Part shown: one piece after another, positions 1 to 10,942 of the stretch
Numbering within the stretch: the stretch's first letter is position 1
How the letters are laid out: the number at the start of each line of letters is the position of its first letter
NCBI GenBank assembly: GCA_016840425.1
Contig: JAEOSI010000057.1
Coordinates: 1 to 10,942, forward strand
Origin: Candidatus Wukongarchaeum yapensis
GTDB lineage: Archaea; Asgardarchaeota; Wukongarchaeia; Wukongarchaeales; Wukongarchaeaceae
Reading direction: 5' to 3'
DNA: 10,942 nt
Notes under the pieces: generated by a model
Database searches by the model: none
Seen by the model: the letters and a program-made list of their open reading frames with translations, nothing else
What the model was told of the DNA's origin: nothing
Program-made: the position numbers and the translations under genes

Positions 1-13
1 TCGACCTAGTCGT

Positions 14-967
14 GTGAAAAATTTTCTGAAAACGTTAACAATCGTTATTATGGTGCTTTTGAACGGTTTTCTTCTTAGAGCTCTTGTAGGGGTTTTTGTT
101 TGGTGGATTGTTGGCTTCTTGGTTTCTTCAGCCATTGGTATAAGGATCATGTATCCTTTTGTGAGACGGATAATGGTGCCGAAGAGGAAGACCCTTGAGG
201 GAGTTGTTAAAGGGGAGTTTTTCTCGAATAAAGCTGTTAATACCAAGGAGTTAACGTGGAAAGAAGCCTTCTTTGAAGAAGGTTGGAAGAAGTTCCGAAT
301 GCCTACCCTCACAATATTCGGGATTTTAAGCATAATGTTGACCCTTACTTCGGAGACTTTGGGTTTAACAGAGGGGGATATCACGCTTGAAACTGTTGCT
401 TTTGTTTGGGGTGGAGCGTTTTTATGGGTGATCTTATTCGCCCCCGTAGTAGTCGCATTCTTCCCCGTAATTTGGCTTACTTCGGACTCAGGATGGCTGC
501 TTTTCGATGAAGAAACCCATAAAATCATAAGCGTGGGAGAAAAAGGACAAGAGTTCATAAAAGGTCTAGCTAGCTTTGGAGTAGTTCTAGCTTTCATAAT
601 AAAAGCCACCCACATATTCGGCATCGTTGACGCCATCATCTTCATGACCTTAGTATTAGTTTTAGCCGCTCCTCCAACTTACCTAACCACCGTTATCTAC
701 TTCAAGAAGTTCCATTTTAAATTCGTGAAAAAATTCGCAAAAAGACTCCAAGACTACATTATTCCAGCCGGCGATTATCAAGTTGATTTAAAAATTGGCG
801 GAACGCCAGTAAAAATTGCTGAATCGCCTAACCCCACATCAACACCTTTACCCTTTAAAACTCAGCAGATCAGTGACAATCAATCACTAAGCGATCCATT
901 ATCGATCAAAAAGTTCGGACAACCATCAACCGACCGCAAACTCCCTCTTTCCGTGTTCCTCTTATGA
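14..967 (+). CDS. Hypothetical multi-pass membrane protein (~6 predicted TM helices), possibly 5'-truncated by the window edge
   Basis: 317-aa ORF with GTG at 14, but the frame is open back to position 2 (no upstream stop), so the true start may lie outside the window. Several long hydrophobic segments and a P/S/T/Q-rich soluble C-terminal tail. No recognisable catalytic motif. Confidence 0.72.
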   Translation: MKNFLKTLTIVIMVLLNGFLLRALVGVFVWWIVGFLVSSAIGIRIMYPFVRRIMVPKRKTLEGVVKGEFFSNKAVNTKELTWKEAFFEEGWKKFRMPTLTIFGILSIMLTLTSETLGLTEGDITLETVAFVWGGAFLWVILFAPVVVAFFPVIWLTSDSGWLLFDEETHKIISVGEKGQEFIKGLASFGVVLAFIIKATHIFGIVDAIIFMTLVLVLAAPPTYLTTVIYFKKFHFKFVKKFAKRLQDYIIPAGDYQVDLKIGGTPVKIAESPNPTSTPLPFKTQQISDNQSLSDPLSIKKFGQPSTDRKLPLSVFLL

Positions 968-1067
968 GGAGCACCAACATTTTTTAGTTTGTTATAAGCT
1001 TCTCATAATATTATTATTTCCCTTATTTTTCTCTACAAGATTTTCTAAGATTCTATTTACATTAAAG

Positions 1068-1110
1068 TCGCAGAAAGCCAACGGCTTCTTTGGTCGTTGG
1101 ATGAATGCGA
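1068..1110 (+). repeat. IS200/IS605 left-end subterminal hairpin
   Basis: Inner stem CCAACGGC(1078-1085)/GTCGTTGG(1093-1100) with one G-T pair; outer stem TCGCA(1068-1072)/TGCGA(1106-1110); AAAG guide tetranucleotide immediately 5' of the inner stem. Confidence 0.75.
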
Positions 1111-1113
1111 TAG

Positions 1114-1121
1114 CTTAAATA
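1114..1121 (+). promoter_or_regulatory. Putative archaeal TATA box inside the element left end
   Basis: CTTAAATA lies at -30..-23 relative to G1144, where the GC-rich structured region begins; a T-rich tract (1123-1137) lies between. Inferred from sequence only. Confidence 0.45.
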
Positions 1122-1418
1122 GTTTGTTTTCTTTTTTAAGAACGGTCATGCCGCACAGCATGGTGGCAGGGTGGGTAAGACGAGGACAATATCAGTATAG
1201 GCCTCGGTGCTGTGCATTCACCCGAAAGGGTGCAAAGGCATCCGCAATGCGGCGATAAGCGTGAAACCCACGCCGGAAGAAGGGATAGCGCTAACGAGCA
1301 GCTGACTAGGCTCGTGTTTCTCTCCAAGTTGGGAACACTTGAAAGACACCCCTTTGAAAGACTTGGATAAAGAGAGGCATAAACCAAAAGCTTGTTGGGA
1401 AGCGGCTCACCAACAGGG

Positions 1419-1452
1419 GAACCTCACTGCTTTAGCGGTGGGAGGAAGTTAG
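1419..1452 (+). repeat. IS200/IS605 right-end subterminal hairpin and terminus
   Basis: GAAC + CTCACTGC-TTTA-GCGGTGGG (8 bp including 2 G-T pairs) + AGGAAGTTAG. Resembles the common '...TTTAG...GGAGGA.GTCA' right ends of IS605/IS1341 elements. The exact end is uncertain by about 2 nt. Confidence 0.78.
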
Positions 1453-1455
1453 CTC

Positions 1456-1479
1456 GTATGACAAGAATCATACTTTTTT
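1456..1479 (+). terminator. Putative terminator (hairpin + T6) just outside the element right end
   Basis: GTATGA-caagaa-TCATAC (1456-1473) followed by TTTTTT (1474-1479). Confidence 0.4.
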
Positions 1480-1483
1480 ATGG

Positions 1484-1497
1484 GGAAACTTTTTAAA
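1484..1497 (+). promoter_or_regulatory. Possible BRE/TATA upstream of the prenyltransferase gene
   Basis: GGAAAC-TTTTTAAA resembles a purine-rich BRE plus TATA box; a second TATA-like motif (TAATATAATA) lies at 1551-1560. Confidence 0.33.
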
Positions 1498-1532
1498 GGG
1501 CTAGGTTTTTACACTTTTTGGCTTTAATCAAA

Positions 1533-1554
1533 ATTACCACTAATAAGTGGTAAT
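1533..1554. promoter_or_regulatory. Perfect 9-bp inverted repeat, candidate transcription-factor operator
   Basis: ATTACCACT-aata-AGTGGTAAT, overlapping the TATA-like motif at 1551-1560 upstream of the menA-like gene. Confidence 0.45.
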
Positions 1555-1581
1555 ATAATAGGAACTTTTCGGATAATCAAA

Positions 1582-2559
1582 ATGCCGATTGTACTGATCC
1601 ATATAGTGGGTTGGATCTTTATGCAAACGCCGTTTTTAACTTTAAGATCTCGATTTGTGATATGGTTAAAAGTGAGTCGTGCTAATTTTATTCCAGGAGC
1701 TCTTTTTCCATTCTTGGTTGGGAGTGTATTCGCTTGGTCTTTTGAAAACGCTTTTAGCTGGAGATTGTTAACCTTAGGCTTATTGGGGGTTTTCTTAACA
1801 ATCCTCGGTACAAATCTTTTAAACGAATACTATGATTATAAGAGCGGGGCGGATGTTTTAAACACAAGTTTTAACAAATTTTCAGGGGGTTCAAGAGTTC
1901 TTCCTGAAGGATTATTAGCACCCGAAAAAGTCGTTATAGTATCCCTAATATCTTTCTCCTTAGTTTTTTTAATAGCAATATACTTATCATATATTACAAC
2001 TTGGGTCTTGCTTCCTCTTGCAACTTTCGGCATTTTTAGTGGTGCATTTTATACAGCAAGCCCCATACAAACTGGTTATAAAGGTGTAGGAGAATTTTTC
2101 ATAGCTTTAAGTTTTGGCTGGTTATGTGTAACCTGTGGGTATATTGTACAAACAAGTTCTATTGCAGCTGAGCCCCAAATACTCTCCATACCATTGAGCA
2201 TTACTATTTTTCTAGTGATCCTAATAAACGAATTACCCGATTATCAAGCAGACAAAAAGGCGGGGAAAAACACCATGGTAGTAAAAATCGGCCCAGAAAA
2301 ATCAGCAAAAATCTATACTTTATTAACACTACTAGTTTACATATCAATCATCCTTATCACGTTGTTCTTATCGGCATTATCTCTACTTCTTGCCCTTCTT
2401 ACGTTACCCATTGCAATAAAATCAATACAAAATATAAAACTATACAAAGATCACGAAATCTTAGAAAAAACATGCGGAATGACCATCGGAATACATATAC
2501 TAACAAGTCTTCTCCTCATAATAGGTCTCGTAATCCACCAATATCAGTTAATACCCTGA
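1582..2559 (+). CDS. menA: UbiA-superfamily prenyltransferase, MenA/UBIAD1-like (1,4-dihydroxy-2-naphthoate polyprenyltransferase)
   Basis: Motifs NEYYDYKSGAD...GGSRVL and INELPDYQADKKAGKNTMVVKIG (the two Asp-rich motifs in MenA-type spacing); ~8-9 TM helices. The real start may be the ATG at 1621. Confidence 0.82.
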   Translation: MPIVLIHIVGWIFMQTPFLTLRSRFVIWLKVSRANFIPGALFPFLVGSVFAWSFENAFSWRLLTLGLLGVFLTILGTNLLNEYYDYKSGADVLNTSFNKFSGGSRVLPEGLLAPEKVVIVSLISFSLVFLIAIYLSYITTWVLLPLATFGIFSGAFYTASPIQTGYKGVGEFFIALSFGWLCVTCGYIVQTSSIAAEPQILSIPLSITIFLVILINELPDYQADKKAGKNTMVVKIGPEKSAKIYTLLTLLVYISIILITLFLSALSLLLALLTLPIAIKSIQNIKLYKDHEILEKTCGMTIGIHILTSLLLIIGLVIHQYQLIP

Positions 2560-2619
2560 TACTCTCTCAAAAACTCCCTTTTTTAAAAACAAAAAAATTA
2601 TAAAAAGATAAACATTAGC

Positions 2620-2826
2620 TTAACTTCTTTCTCCTTTATTTTTTCGATAAACATAAAAAAATAAAAGGTATAGAAAGCAGAAAATAATGCCAAAAATAAT
2701 AACTATGAATAATATCTCCTCAAGAGGGTTTACGTACTGTAAAAAACCGATAAAAATCAGACTGATAATCAACCAACCTATATACACTAACGGAGAATCT
2801 TCACTTTGCTCTAACTTCTCTAACAT
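2620..2826 (-). CDS. Small hypothetical membrane protein (68 aa, 2 TM helices, basic C-terminus)
   Basis: ATG at 2826 preceded by a GGTGA Shine-Dalgarno (reverse complement of TCACC, ~2837-2841); two hydrophobic helices. Confidence 0.68.
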   Translation of the reverse strand: MLEKLEQSEDSPLVYIGWLIISLIFIGFLQYVNPLEEILFIVIIFGIIFCFLYLLFFYVYRKNKGERS

Positions 2827-3002
2827 TTATCTGCTTTCACCAAGCAAAAAGGTCATTAGTATCTTTTCATTAATTCCAATAAAATTCTCAATAATGTTTT
2901 TGGGAGCCTTCTTATTCTTTTCTCCTTTCTTTTTTTAGTTTACTAATCGCATTCTATTTTTTGTTAATCTGCATCTGATGAGTTTAGTTATTTTTCCTTT
3001 CT

Positions 3003-3500
3003 TTAAGGATATTGTCTTCTTTTTTCGGTTTTTCTACGGCGTTTTGCTCTACCAGTCGATTCAGCTATGACTGCGAAAATCAAAAACAGAATAGGTGCCA
3101 AAATTATTAACATAAGAATCAATACTAGCAGTGGCACAGTCCAAGGAAGGAAAAATACGATCACAGAAAACAAAACTAGAATAAACAGAATAAAGATTAT
3201 CTGGCCCAAAATCCATCCGAAACCGCAAAGTGATGACTCTCCTTTCCGCGTTATTATTCTTCCAGTAGCCACGCCTTCATGCCACTTTTCAGCTGCAAGA
3301 GCCCTCAATTCAGCGCCACAATTTGAACAATATTCTGCGAAAACTTCCTCTTTTTTTCCGCAATATGGGCAAACTAAAAACTTCTTTTCACGTTCTTTTT
3401 TTTCTTTTCTTATTTTTGAAAGGTCTGCACCACAATGTTCGCAAAAATCATATCCCTCCCGTATGGCAGAACCGCAGAAAGGGCAGTAATAAATACTCAA
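3003..3500 (-). CDS. Double zinc-ribbon (DZR) membrane protein, 165 aa
   Basis: Four CxxC pairs (CPFC, CEHC, CPYC, CSNC), two TM helices and an R/K-rich tail. Start reassigned from 3608 to the TTG at 3500, which has a GAGGTG Shine-Dalgarno 7 nt upstream (3508-3513). Confidence 0.8.
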   Translation of the reverse strand: MSIYYCPFCGSAIREGYDFCEHCGADLSKIRKEKKEREKKFLVCPYCGKKEEVFAEYCSNCGAELRALAAEKWHEGVATGRIITRKGESSLCGFGWILGQIIFILFILVLFSVIVFFLPWTVPLLVLILMLIILAPILFLIFAVIAESTGRAKRRRKTEKRRQYP

Positions 3501-3569
3501 GCTAAAACACCTCTTAACAGGTGAAAAACAGTAAGAAATCAAATTTGTTCTTAAAATAAAATTAGCTAA

Positions 3570-3758
3570 ATAATATTTAATCCGTTCGGTGACCGAGCCC
3601 TTATGCATCTTGCAGACACGATTTTAAACTTTTATCTCATAAAGGATAGAGGCAACAATTACTTGACAAAGATCGAAAGTTTTGGTAGAAACTTAACAAA
3701 ACTATCATCGTTGCTGATGGAAATCGAAAACAACAAAATAAAAATAAGCGAACTCTAA
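3570..3758 (+). pseudogene. Possible fragment of a RecA/RadA/KaiC-superfamily ATPase C-terminus
   Basis: Open frame not in the ORF track: IIFNPFGDRALMHLADTILNFYLIKDRGNNYLTKIESFGRN...KISEL* (ATG at 3603 gives 51 aa). G-x-x-x-L-x-H-x-A-D-x-I-L resembles the late conserved motif of RecA-fold proteins. No Walker A/B is present and similarity is by eye only. Confidence 0.25.
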
Positions 3759-3815
3759 CTCCCGTATTACTTTTTTTTCTTGTACATGTTTTAAGATAGT
3801 GTCATGTTCTTAATG

Positions 3816-3823
3816 TTTATAAA
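3816..3823 (+). promoter_or_regulatory. Possible TATA box for the EndoQ-like gene
   Basis: TTTATAAA about 43 nt upstream of the ATG at 3866. Confidence 0.33.
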
Positions 3824-3865
3824 TAATGCGTGTTTTTAGAGATTTTAAAGTAAAATAGGGCATTA

Positions 3866-5281
3866 ATGATGCGTGTCATAGCTGATTTTCACGTTCATTC
3901 CCCTTATTCTCGAGCTACTTCTCAAAAAATAAGAATAAATGACCTTTATAGAAACGGTAAATTAAAGGGTTTAAACCTGATTGGTACCGGAGACGTTATC
4001 CACAAGGCTTGGAGAGAAGAACTGGAGAAAAGTCTCGATTTTTCAAAAGATTATGGTCTCTACTTATCTAAAAAAAGTCTACGTGAAGTTAACGATCAAA
4101 ACATCTTTTTTATACCTACCACTGAGGTAAACTGTATTTTCTCTAAAGAAGAGTTGAAAGATTCAAGTAAAAAGAGGAAGTCGAACAGGAAACAGATCCA
4201 TCATTTAATAATTATGCCTGATTTAAAGACTGCAGAAGAAGTTTCAAAAGTTTTATCAAAGTTTGGTAAAATGGATGCTGATGGCAGGCCGGACCTTCAT
4301 ATTTCCCCTGCAAAACTCGTAGAGATTCTTATGTCAATATCTTCAAACATCGTTATAGTGCCTGCTCACATCTGGACTCCTTGGTACTCTCTTTTCGGAG
4401 CTTTTAGCGGGTTTAACTCAATAGCTGAATGTTACGAAGACCAATTAAAACACATCTATGCTTTGGAAACAGGTTTGTCAAGCGATCCTCCGATGAATTG
4501 GCGTCTTAGTCAACTTGATGATTTTCTCCTTGTTTCGAACAGTGATGCTCACTCGGCTAATCCTTGGCGCCTTGGAAGAGAAGCCAACATTTTTGAACTT
4601 GAAGAGCTCTCTTGTGAAACCCTGATAAAAGCTTTAAAAAAACGGAGTTCAGAAGGGAAAAATAAGCTTTCAGCAACCATCGAAGTCTACCCAGACTTAG
4701 GAAAATATCATTACACAGGTCATAGAAAGTGCGGTGTAAACCTCTCTCCTGACGAAGCTTTAAAAATAGATAATAAATGCCCTGTATGCGGTCGTTCTCT
4801 GACCATTGGCGTCATGCAAAGAGTTGAACAACTGGCAGACCGCTCCCAAAAATTCACCCATAAAAATAAGCCTGGTTTCATTTCAACCCTCCCCCTCCAT
4901 GAAATTTTATCCACGGTTCACGGAATCACTACTTATCACTCAAAAACCCTTTGGAAAGCCTATTATGAGATAGTTGAAGCGACAGGTTCGGAATTCAACG
5001 CCCTAATATTTACGCCAGAAGAAGTTTTAGAAAAAACCGTTCCAAGAGAAGTTTTTAAAATGATAACAGCCCTAAGGAAGAATAAAATCAGGTTAAAACC
5101 AGGCTTCGACGGAGAATACGGAAAAATAATCACCGAGGAGAAAATGGGGGAAATTTATTCTCCCTCCCTTGAACAACAGAAAAAACAAAAACAACAACAA
5201 GAAATAAAAAAGAGTACCAAACCTGCTCCTAAAGAGTCAAAAAAGCATCAAAAATTAACCATTCTTGACGAGTTTCTCTAA
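3866..5281 (+). CDS. endoQ: Endonuclease Q family / PHP-domain DNA repair endonuclease (TIGR00375-like)
   Basis: N-terminal DFHVHSPYSRATS, GTGD, PAHIWTPW, ETGLSSD, SNSDAHS PHP motifs; Zn-finger GHRKC...CPVCG; PG(F)DGEYG near the C-terminus; Q/K-rich linker ending in LTILDEFL. Confidence 0.85.
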   Translation: MMRVIADFHVHSPYSRATSQKIRINDLYRNGKLKGLNLIGTGDVIHKAWREELEKSLDFSKDYGLYLSKKSLREVNDQNIFFIPTTEVNCIFSKEELKDSSKKRKSNRKQIHHLIIMPDLKTAEEVSKVLSKFGKMDADGRPDLHISPAKLVEILMSISSNIVIVPAHIWTPWYSLFGAFSGFNSIAECYEDQLKHIYALETGLSSDPPMNWRLSQLDDFLLVSNSDAHSANPWRLGREANIFELEELSCETLIKALKKRSSEGKNKLSATIEVYPDLGKYHYTGHRKCGVNLSPDEALKIDNKCPVCGRSLTIGVMQRVEQLADRSQKFTHKNKPGFISTLPLHEILSTVHGITTYHSKTLWKAYYEIVEATGSEFNALIFTPEEVLEKTVPREVFKMITALRKNKIRLKPGFDGEYGKIITEEKMGEIYSPSLEQQKKQKQQQEIKKSTKPAPKESKKHQKLTILDEFL

Positions 5282-5318
5282 ACCTGAAGTGCTAAAAAAC
5301 TAAAAGGTTTTCTTTGTT

Positions 5319-6968
5319 TTATTTTCGTTTGTGTGTTTTGAATATGAATCGTGTGCACGTGTTTCTTATGCCTCTTACTGCTCTTATTTGTTCTAATATT
5401 CCGTTTATTTCGTTCATCGTGTTTCCGCTTAGAAGTGCTTCTATGTCGTATTGGCCTGATATTTCGTAAACACGGTATACTTGGGCGATTTTTGAGACAT
5501 TTCTTGCTATCCCTGTCGTGTATACGTTACTTTCACATTGGATGAGCATCAAAGCATTAATAGCGTTATCGTTAAAGCTTTTAAGCTGTCCGTTAATCTG
5601 TTTTAAAACTAAGCGCGTATCTGTGCGCTGAATACCCTTCTCGGCCCTTATCCTGTCAAGGATGGCGTTTAGTTCAGGCATGGAGGATGCTTTACAAAAC
5701 ATTTCGGCATCATACTCACCACTTATCTCATAAGCTGCTTGGATTGGATCTAAATCCGCTATTTTTTTGAGTATTTCCGCTGCTTGAACGCTTGCAAAAC
5801 ACTGCATCCTGACAATTGCCTCTACTTCTGTGGGTATCGTAGCGGTAAAACTCTGCCCCGTTATCCTCTCTGCAAGAATCACTAAATCAGGATCTTTAAG
5901 ATTTCTAAAGGCAGGATTCTCTTTAATCAGTTTTAAGATATCGCCCAACTGTTCCTCCGAAAGGTTTATTCCAGCCTTTTCAAGCTTAGCTTTCACAGCC
6001 TGTCTCCCTGCATATTTATCCACTATTATGTCCCTGTGTCTACCAATTAAGTCAGGGGGAAAAGCTTCATAAGTTCGAGGGTCTACAAGGACTGCTGCTG
6101 TGTGTAATCCTCCTTTATGACTGAACGCATTTTCCCCAATGACAGGTGTTTGAGCCGACAAAAGGATGCCGCTAAGCCTCTCAACGAGGAGGCTAGCCTC
6201 TGGAAGCTTTTCAAGGCTTATTTTTTCATGACCCAAATGAAGTCTAGCAACTACGGCAAAAGTGGAGAGATCGACGATCCCACAACGTTCCCCTAAATTG
6301 TTGCAAGTAACGTGAATACAGGTCGCCCCATTTCTTACGGCTTCTAAAGCATTAGCAACCGCCATACCTAAATCGTTATGAAAATGACCATCTAACTCCG
6401 CCTTAACCTTTTTAGAAAGGGTTTGAAATAAGGGTCCTACTTCGAAAGGCATCATGACACCTGCGGTATCTGGAACACTAATCCTCTCAGCCCCTGCATC
6501 GGCTGCAGCATTAGCAGCTCGTGCTAAGTAATCCACCTCTGTTCTTGAAGCGTCTTCACAAGTAAACCTCACCTTAAGCCCATGTTCTTTTGCATAAGTT
6601 ACTGCCTCTACCGCCATATTTATCACTCGTTCCTCTGTAAACTTCCGCGCCCTCCTATGAATATCACTTGTGGGTAAAAAGATGCCCACCCAGTCAACAT
6701 CACAAGAAAGGGCAAGATCTACGTCACTTTTTCTCGCCATACTGTGCGCAACTATCTCTGCTTCTAATCTTTCATCAGCCACTTTTTTAATGCCCTCTTT
6801 AACGTCGGGAGAAACAGCTGGATGACCCGCCTCAATCATATCTACTCCACATTCATCAAGAAGTCTCGCGATCTCAACCCGTTCATCAGGCGTAAAAGAA
6901 ACACCTGTTGTTTGTTCCCCTTCACGGAGCGTTGTTTCAAGAATCAACAGCTTTTTTTCGTCTTGCAT
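5319..6968 (-). CDS. Homocitrate synthase (DRE-TIM metallolyase, LeuA/HCS family) with two tandem C-terminal RAM (Lrp/AsnC ligand-binding) domains
   Basis: TTLREGEQ (R-E as in Thermus/Sulfolobus/fungal HCS rather than R-D of IPMS), EDASR, PDTAG, HFHND.G, GERCG, HKGGLH. No LeuA regulatory domain; instead two ~75-aa repeats each with YEISG[E/Q]YD. ATG at 6968 (GAGTGG SD) preferred over the GTG at 6980. Confidence 0.87.
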   Translation of the reverse strand: MQDEKKLLILETTLREGEQTTGVSFTPDERVEIARLLDECGVDMIEAGHPAVSPDVKEGIKKVADERLEAEIVAHSMARKSDVDLALSCDVDWVGIFLPTSDIHRRARKFTEERVINMAVEAVTYAKEHGLKVRFTCEDASRTEVDYLARAANAAADAGAERISVPDTAGVMMPFEVGPLFQTLSKKVKAELDGHFHNDLGMAVANALEAVRNGATCIHVTCNNLGERCGIVDLSTFAVVARLHLGHEKISLEKLPEASLLVERLSGILLSAQTPVIGENAFSHKGGLHTAAVLVDPRTYEAFPPDLIGRHRDIIVDKYAGRQAVKAKLEKAGINLSEEQLGDILKLIKENPAFRNLKDPDLVILAERITGQSFTATIPTEVEAIVRMQCFASVQAAEILKKIADLDPIQAAYEISGEYDAEMFCKASSMPELNAILDRIRAEKGIQRTDTRLVLKQINGQLKSFNDNAINALMLIQCESNVYTTGIARNVSKIAQVYRVYEISGQYDIEALLSGNTMNEINGILEQIRAVRGIRNTCTRFIFKTHKRK

Positions 6969-7150
6969 GGAAAAAACCACTCAAACAGCGTGTTTAACGC
7001 CTTTAAGTAGAAAATCCTTATTTTATAGAAAACAAAAAACGAGTTAGCTCCTTCCCATTTAAACTTTTTTTTCCATCTTTTCGTCATATTATTGGAGACC
7101 TCATACATGCCTAATATAATATTTTATTATTATAATACTATTTTTTATTT

Positions 7151-7681
7151 TTAGGGGGTTTTTATGTTTTCTCTGTATATTTCGTAAGCTATTTCGTTGA
7201 AAACGTTTTCCACATTTTTCCCTGTAAGAGAAGAGGTTTCAAAATAATTTTTTACCTTTAATTCTTCCTTTTTTTCTGTTACCATGTTTTCTGTTACTTG
7301 TATTTCATTCTCAAGGTCTGACTTTGTTCCCACTAAAACCACTGGGATATTACCCACATTTTCACTGACCAATTCCTGCCATTCTGAAAGACTTAAAAGC
7401 GTTCGCATACGGGTTAAATCAAAGGCAAGAACCGCTCCTTTAGCCCCTTTTATATAACGGTCAAACACTCCCATTGATTTGAACTGTTCTTGTCCTCCAA
7501 GATCCCAGATCTGTAGAGTAATCTCCTCATCTTCTATTTTTACTTTGTGCACATAAAAGGCTACGCCTAGAGTTATCAAGGTGTCGCCTATAAATTCACC
7601 GGTAAGAAAACGTTGTGTTAGTGTCGTTTTGCCAACACCACCTTCGCCAGCAATTACAACCTTATAGAGATTAAAAGACAA
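7151..7681 (-). CDS. Ras-superfamily small GTPase, Rab-like (Asgard type), 176 aa
   Basis: G1 GEGGVGKTT, G2 T(LG), G3 WDLGGQE, G4 TKSD, G5 ETSSL. TTG start with an AGGAG SD. Confidence 0.92.
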   Translation of the reverse strand: MSFNLYKVVIAGEGGVGKTTLTQRFLTGEFIGDTLITLGVAFYVHKVKIEDEEITLQIWDLGGQEQFKSMGVFDRYIKGAKGAVLAFDLTRMRTLLSLSEWQELVSENVGNIPVVLVGTKSDLENEIQVTENMVTEKKEELKVKNYFETSSLTGKNVENVFNEIAYEIYRENIKTP

Positions 7682-8050
7682 TTTTCTCCTTCCTATGGCG
7701 GTTTTTTCCTGTAAAACCCCTTTTATTACTGAACTAAACGATTCAATTATATATACAATTATTTTTAAGCATATTAAGTGTTTTTATGGAATTAAACAAG
7801 AATTCTATTTATTCTCAACATCGTCTAAGCAAAATTACGATATTTATAAGACTATGAAATTTTGTTCTTTTCTCCTTCCCGAATATCGCAATAAGACAAG
7901 AAAATATATATTTTTTAATCTCTATTTTTATACATAGGTTGAATATAATATAATTAAATTTTATAATAAAAACACTTTCTAAAAAATAAAATTATTTAGA
8001 AATAAATCAGGTATCTATGAGAAAAAGCAAAATAAGGAGGGAGTTAAAAA

Positions 8051-8608
8051 GTGCCTGAAAAAAATACGAAATCAAAACGTAAAAGCCGTAAAACATCTCA
8101 AGATAACTTTTTCACTCCCTGTGAAATTTTTTTTACGAGAAAAAAAAGAGAAAAAGATGTTTTTAGTTATCTTACAGGCGGTATAGATTGTAAGAAAAAA
8201 ATAGAAGGTATATGCCCTCTAAGAAAAAAAGGAAATAATGAACCGCCAAAGCTATCTCTAACCGAAGAATTTGATATCGTCATGCTCATTTCTAAGGACG
8301 GTATTCCCCTCTGGAAAAAAGAGTATAATAGCAACAAAAGGAAGAAAAAAGAGCTTATAGATCCTATCCAATTCACCATTTTTGCAGGAACTTTCTCAGC
8401 GATAAATGCAACCTTTTCTTCAGTAGTTGGAGACTCAATAGGTCTTGTGAAAAGTTCAAAAGGAAAAAGGCATTGGTTGATAAAAGATCTAGCCTCTTCA
8501 AACTGGCTCCTCATTGCTCAAACAAAATCATCAAAACCCACAACGAGCAAATTATTCGAACAAATGTGTAAAACAATCGAAAAATGCATAATTCATTCCA
8601 AAAAATAA
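8051..8608 (+). CDS. Longin/roadblock-like domain protein with a basic, Cys-containing N-terminal extension
   Basis: GTG start with AGGAGG SD. The C-terminal ~115 aa have a beta-beta-alpha-beta-beta-beta-alpha pattern (IVMLISKDGIPLW; FAGTFSAINATFSSVVG; IGLVKS; HWLIKD; WLLIAQT; SKLFEQMCKTIEK). Fold is inferred from the pattern only. Confidence 0.62.
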   Translation: MPEKNTKSKRKSRKTSQDNFFTPCEIFFTRKKREKDVFSYLTGGIDCKKKIEGICPLRKKGNNEPPKLSLTEEFDIVMLISKDGIPLWKKEYNSNKRKKKELIDPIQFTIFAGTFSAINATFSSVVGDSIGLVKSSKGKRHWLIKDLASSNWLLIAQTKSSKPTTSKLFEQMCKTIEKCIIHSKK

Positions 8609-8735
8609 TAAAAAAGCGAAATGTAGCCGATATCTATTAGGAGTACCTAAACATGATTTTTGAACAAACTCGGGTAACTAGGGCAAATTAGATCAGTATC
8701 ATTTGACATGTACAGAAGCTCCTTCCCAAGGTAGT

Positions 8736-9347
8736 TCATTCTTCCTTTTCTTTTTCAATTATTTTTGCTTCTAGTTCCCGGATTTTTTGCCAAAATCCGT
8801 CTATATCTATATCTTTTAACAAGAATAAAGCTTCTAAAATGTCGTCAGAAACTGTATCTTCATCAAAATTTGAAAAGGATGCGTAGTCTTCGATCTGTTT
8901 TTGGAAAATTTCAAATTCTTTTTTTATGCTTCCGATAACCTTATCGTAAGGCGATATTTTTTCTTTAACGATCCTCCTGTTTTTTTCAATTAAATCAATC
9001 AATTTCTCATAATCATGGGAAATTAACAATGCTCCAAGTTTTGCTTCTTCTACGTCTTGAGCTTGTTTCTCTATCCTGTCACAAGTATTCAAAAAATCTG
9101 TAAAAAGGTTAAACATCCTTTTTCTCATGCTAAAAACTTCTATTAAGGTTCTTAAAAGGTTTATGATAAGGGAAGTTGTTTTGTCTAAAGTTTTTTTGTA
9201 GTCATTAAAATCTTCAATTTTTTTACTTGTTGTTATCACGCTTGGAAAAAGATGAATCTCCATATCTAACGTTTTTAGTAGAAGGTAACGTATCATGCGA
9301 AACCCATTTTTTATCTCAAAAGTCTCCTCTTCCACAAGATTATGCAT
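8736..9347 (-). CDS. Hypothetical all-alpha-helical / coiled-coil protein, 203 aa
   Basis: ATG with GGGGGA SD; amphipathic heptad-like helices rich in E/K/L/I; no recognisable motif. Confidence 0.75.
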   Translation of the reverse strand: MHNLVEEETFEIKNGFRMIRYLLLKTLDMEIHLFPSVITTSKKIEDFNDYKKTLDKTTSLIINLLRTLIEVFSMRKRMFNLFTDFLNTCDRIEKQAQDVEEAKLGALLISHDYEKLIDLIEKNRRIVKEKISPYDKVIGSIKKEFEIFQKQIEDYASFSNFDEDTVSDDILEALFLLKDIDIDGFWQKIRELEAKIIEKEKEE

Positions 9348-9508
9348 ACCAATTTCCCCCGAAAAACTATGTTGAACTATTTAAGAAATATACACAATAT
9401 AAACTTATCTTTCATTACAAATTCGAACAAAACAATCTATCTTTTCCTCATGGGATAATTTTAAAGCTGATCAGTCAAGAAAAGATTTAGTTTTGGAGGA
9501 ATAATAAA

Positions 9509-10726
9509 GTGGGTAAAAACCAAGACGAAGAAGAAGGAAATTTGAGCCATAATACAAAAGCGGTGATATCCTTAGATGAGAGGTTTGTTATGCAGACTTA
9601 CAGTCGTTTTCCGGTAGTTCCTGTGAGGGCGAAAGGGGTCAAGGTTTGGGATTGTGATGGAAAGGAGTATATTGATTGTGTTTCAGGGATTGCTGTTTTA
9701 AATGTTGGTCATCGTCATCCGCGTATCCTTAAAGTACTAAAAGAACAGGCAGAGCAACTTATGCATATCTCAAACCATTTCTACATCGAGCAGCAAGCAA
9801 AAGCAAGCGAATACTTGGCAAAAATAGCTCCAAAACCGCTTGAAAAAACGTTTTGGGGAAACAGTGGCACAGAGGCGGTAGAAGCAGCGCTTAAGCTCGC
9901 CATAAAGTACACAGGAAAACACGAGTTTATCGCGGCTCAAGGAAGTTTCCACGGAAGAACTATGGGTGCATTAGCCACAACATGGAACGAACATTACCGG
10001 GCTCCCTACGCTCCTTTCGGAATTAACGCTAAGTTTGTTCCCTTCAACGATTTACAAGCGATAAAAGAAGCAGTCTCAAAGGATACTGCAGGAATAATTC
10101 TTGAACCCGTACAAGGGCAAGGAGGCGTCAATATACCCTCAAATGGTTACCTAGAAGCAGTAAGAGAACTCTGTGATGAGAAAGAAATACTGCTCATTTT
10201 TGATGAAGTGCAGACAGGGTTCGGACGCACAGGCAAACTTTGGGCAGGAGAACACTGGAACGTTGTCCCAGACATAATGCCACTTGCTAAAGCTTTAGGA
10301 GGAGGAATATCTTCTGGAGCCTGCATCGCAAAAGAAGAGATCGCAAAAGCTTTCGATCACGGCGCCCACGGAACAACTTTTGGCGGAAACCCACTGGCTT
10401 GCGCCTTATCCCTTGAAGCCATGAAGATCGTTGTCGAAGAAAACCTATCTGAAAGAGCCGCTGAACTGGGTAAAAAAGCCGTTAAACAACTAAAAGAGCT
10501 TAAGGAAGACTTAGAAATTATAAAAGATGTGCGTGGAATAGGACTACTTATCGGCATAGAAGTTTCTAAAGACGCAAAAAAACTGTGTTTAGAAATGATT
10601 AAGAAAGGCATTTTAATCACATACACAGCAGAAAAAGTCATAAGAGTCATACCTCCCCTCGTAATAAAAGAAGAAGAACTTGAAAAAGCTTTAAACATCA
10701 TAGCGGAAGGTTTTAAGCAACATTAG
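9509..10726 (+). CDS. lysJ: Class-III PLP aminotransferase, [LysW]-aminoadipate semialdehyde / acetylornithine aminotransferase (LysJ/ArgD)
   Basis: NSGTEAVEAALK, SFHGRT, FDEVQTG, AKALGGG (PLP lysine), TTFGGNPLAC. TTWNEHYR resembles the 'TW..KYR' of LysJ rather than ArgD, and HCS is nearby. GTG start with GGAGG SD. The lysJ versus argD call is moderately certain. Confidence 0.85.
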   Translation: MGKNQDEEEGNLSHNTKAVISLDERFVMQTYSRFPVVPVRAKGVKVWDCDGKEYIDCVSGIAVLNVGHRHPRILKVLKEQAEQLMHISNHFYIEQQAKASEYLAKIAPKPLEKTFWGNSGTEAVEAALKLAIKYTGKHEFIAAQGSFHGRTMGALATTWNEHYRAPYAPFGINAKFVPFNDLQAIKEAVSKDTAGIILEPVQGQGGVNIPSNGYLEAVRELCDEKEILLIFDEVQTGFGRTGKLWAGEHWNVVPDIMPLAKALGGGISSGACIAKEEIAKAFDHGAHGTTFGGNPLACALSLEAMKIVVEENLSERAAELGKKAVKQLKELKEDLEIIKDVRGIGLLIGIEVSKDAKKLCLEMIKKGILITYTAEKVIRVIPPLVIKEEELEKALNIIAEGFKQH

Positions 10727-10942
10727 GTGCTTGGAAGAATTATCTCTTCCCCTTCTTTCCCATATATTCTACACTTGTCCAAAAGGTAAAATTTTGCGGT
10801 TAAAGCGGCAAGAACGGCGTCCACTTCATGCTGATTTTTTGGAATATTTTTGAATTTTAAGCTGAATTTTCTCTCACAAGCTTTTACAAAAGCTTCTATA
10901 GGTTTTTTCTCTATTTTTAATGCCTTAGCAGAAGAAGAAGGA
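10723..10942 (-). CDS. 3' end of a DUF429-like (predicted RNase H-fold nuclease) gene; start lies beyond the window
   Basis: Not in the ORF track. Reading from 10941: PSSSAKALKIEKKPIEAFVKACERKFSLKFKNIPKNQHEVDAVLAALTAKFYLLDKCRIYGKEGEEIILPST*. The HEVDAxxAALTA...G.E..IILP pattern is characteristic of DUF429 C-termini. Confidence 0.65.
   Translation of the reverse strand, partial: PSSSAKALKIEKKPIEAFVKACERKFSLKFKNIPKNQHEVDAVLAALTAKFYLLDKCRIYGKEGEEIILPST

Follow-up and report, generated by a model that had tools for sequence, protein, structure and literature searches.

How does an RNA of the omegaRNA type come to lie in an archaeal genome behind what looks like a promoter of its own, with no nuclease gene attached to it? 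The question is raised by a stretch of 10,942 nucleotides from Candidatus Wukongarchaeum yapensis (contig JAEOSI010000057.1, positions 1 to 10,942; here called the window, meaning the whole stretch analysed). Positions 1061-1452 of the window are a non-autonomous element of the IS200/IS605 insertion sequence (IS) family, 392 bp long and protein-free, which has kept both of its transposon ends. Asgard archaea, the group to which this organism belongs, are the closest prokaryotic relatives of eukaryotes, and TnpB with its omegaRNA is ancestral both to Cas12 with its guide RNAs and to the eukaryotic Fanzor proteins. An earlier note, made from the sequence alone, had read positions 1114-1479 as a self-contained transcription unit comprising a promoter, an omegaRNA-like scaffold, a guide and a terminator. 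We consider it probable, though far from certain, that the element resembles the palindrome-associated transposable elements (PATEs): an IS200/IS605 element without genes, in which an internal promoter drives an omegaRNA-type guide and for which TnpB and TnpA are provided in trans.

The window copy lies on contig C12 of the source genome (G000), a 2.16-Mb metagenome-assembled genome (MAG) that is 92% complete and has a mean GC content of 0.38. It is compared with a second copy in the same genome, on contig C56, with one in G001, a Candidatus Hodarchaeota MAG of the same genus, and with one in each of two Borrarchaeum genomes, G040 and G057 (the latter being Candidatus Borrarchaeum yapensis). 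The window, C56 and G001 copies are referred to as Hodarchaeal, those of G040 and G057 as Borrarchaeal. R1 and R2 are the covariance models built for the 5' domain and for the omegaRNA core, respectively. The parts of the element and its immediate flanks are as follows.

1056-1060, + strand: TTTAC, the target/transposon-adjacent motif (TAM), directly 5' of the left end
1061-1113, + strand: transposon left end (LE), a nested hairpin with outer stem 1067-1072/1106-1111 and inner stem 1078-1086/1092-1100
1114-1121, + strand: TATA box CTTAAATA, 23-30 nt 5' of the predicted start, G1144
1144-1257, + strand: 5' RNA domain, with R1 matches and covariation and with no Rfam match
1258-1315, + strand: helices resembling omegaRNA core helices 1-3, in the order of the TnpB-linked core, with weak sequence support
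1316-1378, + strand: long three-part hairpin, inserted relative to the canonical core, from the consensus fold of the three Hodarchaeal copies
1391-1452, + strand: last two omegaRNA/right-end (RE) hairpins (1391-1400/1407-1417 and 1423-1430/1435-1442) and terminal AGGAAGTTAG, matched by R2
1453-1473, + strand: right flank, a putative guide segment of ~20 nt; homology among the copies stops at the RE
1474-1479, + strand: run of six T (T6), a possible archaeal termination signal in native intergenic DNA, by homology to the G001 site

The features on which the earlier note was built, namely the TATA sequence at 1114-1121, a GC-rich block with hairpins (one of them GNRA-capped), the end of the RE and a hairpin followed by T6, are all present.

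The element is bounded by genuine IS200/IS605-type ends, since both its LE hairpin and its RE terminus match those of one group of TnpB elements resident in the genome. The LE hairpin (1067-1111) is found on seven other contigs of G000 with 88-98% identity. It is 97.8% identical to the LE on C235, which lies directly 5' of a 416-aa TnpB frame, and equally close to the copy on C91, where there is no TnpB match; the further LE matches are on C7, C117, C84, C246 and C263. TTTAC precedes this hairpin in 7 of 9 copies in G000 and also stands 5' of the tnpA-tnpB copy on C70. Indeed, the IS family carries at its left flank the very motif that the earlier note had proposed. At the opposite end, the block closes with ...GGGAGGAAGTTAG at G1452, which aligns with the ...GAG(T/G)ATGTCAG of tnpB-bearing copies, the terminus shared by one group of TnpB elements in G000 (hereafter group B). 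The IS family to which the element belongs is of the IS1341/TnpB type, with TTTAC as TAM and ...GAGTATGTCAG as right end. Open reading frames (ORFs) overlapping the element do not exceed 83 aa, there are stops in all three forward frames, and any reading frame is disrupted by the indels (4+1 and 8 nt) that distinguish the copies. A coding relic at 1144-1390 (frame 1, ...NAAI..., RuvC-III-like) was considered and rejected, as local alignment with the 3' regions of tnpB does no better than chance (z<=1.2) and other copies do not preserve the frame.

The last ~200 nt of the RNA have the helix layout of a TnpB-linked omegaRNA core. This core was derived from an alignment of the last 130 nt of seven group-B RE regions of G000, five of which adjoin a TnpB match (that on C246 does not), with the two Borrarchaeal copies. 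Five helices make up the consensus, with compensatory change in 14 of 25 pairs, and the core regions give sub-threshold matches (E 0.002-0.08) to the haloarchaeal sotRNA family RF02656. The compensatory pairs and these matches together indicate that the group-B core is a real omegaRNA-type structure. R2 was built from the TnpB-linked and Borrarchaeal cores, the Hodarchaeal stand-alone RNAs being left out. It recognizes 1336-1452 of the window (25.5 bits, E=1e-5), in an alignment that spans the last two hairpins and the tail, as well as the 3' end of the RNA in the G001 copy (E=3e-4) and in the C56 copy (E=0.012). Each of these is the top match in its source and each ends exactly at the RE. Further 5', the segment 1258-1315 repeats the element order of core helices 1-3: an outer helix (1258-1262/1288-1292) around an inner CCC/GGG helix (1267-1269/1282-1284), an AAC linker, and a 6-bp hairpin (1294-1299/1310-1315), including the GGGATAG...TAAC motif. 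Sequence support for this segment is weak, with an nhmmer E value of 0.14 to C246 and local alignment at chance level. A 63-nt hairpin (1316-1378) lies between core helices 3 and 4; TnpB-linked cores contain nothing equivalent. Canonical group-B omegaRNA cores occur in each of the four genomes that carry the RNA, numbering 15, 5, 2 and 7. The R2 match and the homology of LE and RE bear out the central claim of the earlier note, that of an omegaRNA-like unit derived from the RE of an IS200/IS605 element, devoid of a nuclease gene and preceded by its own putative archaeal promoter.

Where does the rest of the RNA come from? The earlier note took the cassette for what remained after deletion of the protein genes. 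As a simple account this fails, because no intact IS copy of G000 has the TATA box or the initial ~105 nt of the RNA. After the LE, those copies have unrelated sequence and a different promoter-like box. The 5' domain contains three helices (P1, 1148-1154/1249-1256; P2, 1153-1160/1208-1215; P3, 1180-1184/1202-1206) and a conserved purine-rich, G-rich loop of 19 nt (1161-1179) that is invariant between Hodarchaeal and Borrarchaeal copies. R1, built on 1144-1215 and searched in 151 Asgard genomes with a completeness of at least 85%, matches five sites in four of them: two in G000 (C12 and C56) and the others in G001, G040 and G057. A pattern search of 400 Asgard genomes returns G000, G001 and G057, the G040 copy being unmatchable owing to a 1-nt deletion in the motif. 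Pattern scans for the domain gave no match in a viral collection and, in metagenomes, only two contigs, which are identical to the Borrarchaeum copy; nhmmer with a Hodarchaeal profile found no additional copies.

The 5' domain is the best-conserved part of the RNA between Hodarchaeal and Borrarchaeal copies, with a mean column identity of 83%. Four of its 13 pairs change on both sides, 97% of the cells are still paired, compensatory changes occur in P2 and P3, and the covariation score is reached by no shuffle. Covarying pairs among homologues, which the earlier note had suggested looking for, are therefore found. In a natural variant contig C1223T and G1228A occur together, which keeps the pairing of the GNRA hairpin. 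A near-canonical omegaRNA core follows the domain in the Borrarchaeal copies. This fusion, together with the shared helix order, argues that the 5' domain is linked to omegaRNA function. Most likely, it would supply the stable, self-contained 5' end and fold that are normally given by the tnpB mRNA context. A weak likeness to the Rfam family D12-methyl (14 bits, E=8) was seen at 1126-1179 over GCCG.CACAGCAU..GGCAGGG.GGG; it overlaps the invariant loop and is most likely due to chance.

The TATA-like octamer lies 28-30 nt from GGTCAT in 5 of 5 copies, as read from the sequences, with a spacer whose sequence diverges, and the box at 1114-1121 is predicted to act as a promoter. GC content is 0.505-0.52 over 1101-1400 and 52% over the structured RNA (1144-1452), well above the genome mean. 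The + strand of 1060-1490 folds at -145.9 kcal/mol (z = -3.3; 0 of 100 dinucleotide shuffles as stable), the - strand with z = -2.1. The consensus fold of the three Hodarchaeal copies has 13 helices, with many G-U pairs that are possible on the + strand only, and the hairpin 1219-1232 is capped by a GAAA loop. When the window and G001 copies are set side by side, each has a z of about -2.9 at 79% identity; 13 pairs differ, of which 11 stay canonical, and identity is 89% in paired and 78% in unpaired columns. Conserved promoter spacing and compensatory changes in other genomes indicate that the arrangement is more than chance.

On the 3' side, a 6-bp hairpin (1456-1461/1468-1473) and then T6 follow the RE, as the earlier note had stated. 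Its interpretation as the stop of the unit has to be amended in one respect. Homology to the orthologous, element-free intergenic site of G001 restarts at window position 1473 and T6 is conserved there, so that T6 is pre-existing native flank. In G001 the orthologues of the genes that flank the element in the window are adjacent on another contig, with no element between them. The stretch of G001 orthologous to the insertion site (G001:C128:2026-2682) holds a different AT-rich sequence of ~650 nt; it is remodelled and not a clean empty site. More generally, flanks are unrelated among the five copies and all the loci are different. As for the guide, its first 12 nt (exact) or 20 nt (with up to 3 mismatches) have no second match in the MAG, and 16 nt with up to 2 mismatches match once, on C132, with no adjoining TTTAC.

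A weak hint of expression comes from a metatranscriptome library in which a 231-nt contig lies wholly inside the RNA (1175-1405, 5 differences). Both flanking genes have zero depth in that run. A second search of RNA libraries returned the same single run only.

Does the genome offer the proteins that such an RNA would need? As the earlier note supposed, TnpB genes of the matching type are present elsewhere in G000, together with TnpA. There are 31 matches to the TnpB Zn-ribbon, on contigs other than that of the window, and full-length group-B TnpB frames are found on C235 (416 aa), C117 (424 aa) and C5 (415 aa). An intact Y1 TnpA of G000 is encoded beside the group-B tnpB on C70. Group-B TnpBs have the RuvC-I and RuvC-III aspartates and carry Gly at the canonical position of the RuvC-II Glu. 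This Gly (IVCGDL or IVIGDV) is seen in the proteins of C235, C117 and C5 and also in those of C172, C265 and C97; other TnpBs of G000 have Glu (VAVEKL, IGLEDL). A 'rearranged' RuvC-II configuration, probably active, has been described (PMC10691335). Judged by these motifs, the Gly-bearing TnpBs of G000 match the 'RuvC-II rearranged' clades of that study.

On the reading that we favour, the cassette stands in place of tnpB. It would consist of an archaeal TATA promoter and an RNA of ~309 nt, made up of the conserved ~105-nt 5' domain and an omegaRNA-type core (five helices and one inserted hairpin) that ends at the RE. Transcription is predicted to start near 1144, to cross the RE into ~20 nt of flank and to stop at T6, which would yield a scaffold-plus-guide RNA. 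A TnpB of the same IS group from elsewhere, such as the 416-aa frame on C235, may then load this RNA in trans, and the mobilising TnpA, probably that of C70, would likewise act in trans. After TnpA-mediated excision, TnpB would cut the restored empty site (TTTAC followed by 1453-1472). Recombination would then copy the element back, which would amount to selfish retention of a gene-less transposon.

A role in homing and retention has been shown for bacterial TnpB (PMC10055086), and a guide that is the right flank with no second target in the MAG fits it. According to the same study, it is common for PATEs to encode omegaRNAs that depend on TnpB in trans, and a transcribed PATE-derived archaeal RNA, with a link to the HgcC family, was reported in 2015 (PMC4615843). 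The earlier note inferred a stand-alone guide-RNA cassette that could serve TnpB in trans. The unit exists, but the general concept is already known, because omegaRNAs of PATEs acting in trans have been described in these two studies. New here are the pairing of a putative dedicated promoter with a 5' domain that is both conserved and covarying, the extra hairpin within the core, the small number of copies and the occurrence in two distant Asgard lineages.

Several observations weigh against this reading. The statistical link to TnpB-linked omegaRNA extends over no more than ~70-115 nt at the 3' end. On the scale of whole genomes the window gives no R2 match at E<=0.001, and the remainder of the RNA has no significant sequence similarity to tnpB 3' regions, either by local alignment or by nhmmer (E=0.14). 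The last two hairpins are also the minimal RE requirement of TnpA, and it is mainly these that the deletion derivative C7:3200-3475 retains. Their conservation alone is for this reason no proof of function at the RNA level. The 5' domain is not accounted for by this reading, and part of the guide segment (1456-1473) folds on itself. The sign of expression is one contig in one RNA library in which neither ends nor strand are visible and where DNA carry-over is possible. Four public runs showed neither an empty-site allele (a TTTAC-CTCGTATG joint) nor an excision joint; the two joints that are listed, 1194>1347 and 1225>1373, probably come from paralogues. Finally, for a selfish element there are very few copies, and one of them is decaying.

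The last point also bears on the dispersed family of cassettes, forming a distributed guide repertoire, that the earlier note envisaged. Multi-copy dispersal of this RNA type is not seen: G000 holds two copies, one of them decaying, and G001, G040 and G057 hold one each, in searches that covered 151-400 Asgard genomes. The C56 copy is judged to be decaying because its LE hairpin is gone, 11 of its pairs are broken and its fold has a z of -0.8; its promoter and RNA are kept.

How else could the locus be explained? It might be a cargo RNA gene, that is, a promoter with a structured non-coding RNA of ~250 nt whose regulatory, protein-binding or ligand-binding function has nothing to do with TnpB and which rides between IS ends, the 3' hairpins being kept as DNA for TnpA. 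This would account for the promoter and domain being missing from every intact IS copy and for the domain, with its invariant purine-rich loop, being the best-conserved part of the RNA. Moreover, sequence similarity to omegaRNA is significant in the terminal hairpins only, and these are enough as an RE in deletion derivatives. However, the Borrarchaeal copies fuse the 5' domain to a complete, near-canonical omegaRNA core that includes coding relics of the tnpB C-terminus, and the Hodarchaeal copy has the same helix order as that core. Since, in addition, no protein partner or target can be named, we regard a cargo RNA as unlikely. We likewise think it improbable that the element is a decaying relic, left over from an unusual IS variant, now functionless and transcribed at most incidentally. 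Window and G001 folds are kept at 21% divergence, with z values of about -2.9 and 11 of 13 changed pairs canonical. P2 and P3 show compensatory changes between Hodarchaeal and Borrarchaeal copies, the TATA spacing is conserved, the LE is near-identical to those of active-looking copies, and a contig from an RNA library covers the RNA. All this is hard to reconcile with mere decay, even though rarity (4 of 151 Asgard genomes by the model; 3 of 400 by the pattern, with G040 unmatchable), the visible degeneration of one of the two G000 copies, the ~200-nt nested insertion in the G040 copy and a guide that has no target besides its own flank would all suit a relic.

A host-domesticated guide RNA serving a nuclease-dead or repurposed TnpB-like (TldR-like) protein, for instance in RNA-guided regulation, is very unlikely. 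Cases of exapted TnpB whose guides are encoded separately have been described (PMC10691335; bioRxiv 10.1101/2023.11.30.569447). The separate promoter, the low copy number, the extra conserved domain and the retention of promoter and RNA in the C56 copy after loss of the LE hairpin would agree with such an origin. Yet that LE-less copy is precisely the decaying one, the guide is mere flank with no second genomic match beside a TAM, and the loci differ between close relatives with no synteny and no conserved neighbouring protein gene. The distribution is sporadic as well.

Returning to the PATE-like reading, how far does the likeness to known systems go? Like PATEs, exemplified by the PATE-like elements of Geobacillus stearothermophilus (PMC10055086) and the PATE-derived RNA VNG_R0052 of Halobacterium (PMC4615843), the element keeps the LE and RE hairpins of the resident IS family, has no protein gene and contains an RE-derived RNA structure. 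It would also share with them the need for TnpA and TnpB in trans and a guide taken from the right flank. Unlike PATEs, it has a dedicated archaeal TATA promoter, as predicted, and a ~105-nt 5' domain missing from intact IS copies, and it is very low-copy and common to two distant Asgard lineages. As in TnpB omegaRNA/reRNA of the ISDra2 type and in the sotRNAs (RF02656, sot0042), the scaffold ends at the RE; homology to the tnpB-linked cores of G000, themselves weak sot0042 matches, extends over its 3' hairpins and the tail ...GAGNANGTNAG. In contrast to those RNAs, that of the window overlaps no tnpB gene, contains the inserted 63-nt hairpin and a foreign 5' domain, and has no RF02656 match; its scaffold of ~309 nt is longer than the ~130-nt core modelled.

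HgcC (RF00062), known from AT-rich archaea such as Methanocaldococcus jannaschii, is likewise a GC-rich RNA island in an AT-rich archaeal genome, and the 3' end of the window RNA resembles its consensus ...GAGGAGGUCAGC with a UUUA-loop terminal hairpin. HgcC has been linked to the RE-like tetraloop of IS1341 elements (PMC4615843). Membership in that family was rejected, the match of 15 bits against a gathering threshold of 50 (E=0.71) being confined to 1314-1465 and to the 3' third of the RNA. IStrons and other IS200/IS605 elements with structured RNA at the LE (bioRxiv 10.1101/2023.11.20.567912) similarly have an RNA module just inside the LE, 5' of the omegaRNA. The element differs from these in that it is archaeal and intergenic rather than intragenic, has no group I intron signature (Rfam, E<=10) and shows nothing suggesting splicing.

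The part of the locus that deserves attention is the 5' domain. An omegaRNA that has no nuclease gene and has acquired a promoter of its own as well as an additional conserved domain would be one route to independent guide-RNA genes served by nucleases in trans. It is possible, if doubtful, that the domain is a new functional RNA module through which the omegaRNA of a transposon becomes a guide-RNA gene that is autonomous and driven by a promoter, and that IS ends carried the domain horizontally between Hodarchaeia and Borrarchaeia. This would make the element an intermediate between embedded omegaRNAs and free-standing guide-RNA genes, and the domain could then be an element for maturation or stability, a sensor, or a domain that recruits a protein. 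If the domain does have a function of its own, a new RNA module is at hand. If not, the element is one more PATE-like mini-transposon of the ordinary kind, of which the genome has many. In either case, the locus supplies a concrete, testable archaeal combination of TnpB, omegaRNA and TAM (TTTAC).

The Rfam check that the earlier note had proposed (IS605, sotRNA and HEARO models) identified no family in the window at gathering thresholds, and the 5' domain, too, is unmatched. A permissive search of 900-1700 listed HgcC (E=0.71), D12-methyl (E=8) and astro_FSE (E=3), all sub-threshold, and none of the group I intron, HEARO, signal recognition particle (SRP) and RNase P families. A housekeeping RNA was rejected as well, given that 900-1700 has no match to RF01857 or RF00373 at E<=10 and that the RNA, present in only 4 of 151 Asgard genomes, is not universal. 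The RNase P RNA of G000 is on C123. Archaeal SRP RNA (RF01857) is found once each in G001, G040 and G057, at loci other than that of the RNA; it was not found in the 92%-complete G000, probably because of an assembly gap.

The element lies between a gene for a 317-aa protein without family assignment and one for a UbiA prenyltransferase, and a scan of nine ORFs of the 10.9-kb window matched none of them to a TnpB or other nuclease family. The earlier note had suspected an Asgard-like archaeon. The genome is indeed an Asgard one, and the window itself encodes a Ras-family small GTPase of 176 aa (7151-7681, - strand; Pfam Ras, E=1.5e-40), a typical 'eukaryotic signature' protein of Asgard archaea.

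In the G040 copy (G040:C8, ~1345-1150, - strand) an insertion of ~200 nt with its own hairpin, CCTCACCACGCTAAAGCGGTGGTG, separates the 5' domain from the omegaRNA core and may be a nested mini-element. Other ORF-less group-B derivatives of G000 are C7:3200-3475 and those on C246, C18 and C84; a solo LE at C117:12647 showed no cassette on inspection. The composite on C246 (2513-3057, - strand; ~540 bp, ORF-less) comprises a group-B LE, then an omegaRNA/RE-like segment of another group (...GGGATAGTTCAC), then a group-B core and RE. Compared with the 392 bp of the window element, C84:3737-3790 and C18:~459 (- strand) are LE/RE fusions of only ~55 bp, in which the group-B LE hairpin directly adjoins the RE terminus ...GTGGGATTATGTCAG. 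Each is preceded by a TTTAC- or TTATA-like motif, and among the PATE forms of this IS family they are the smallest.

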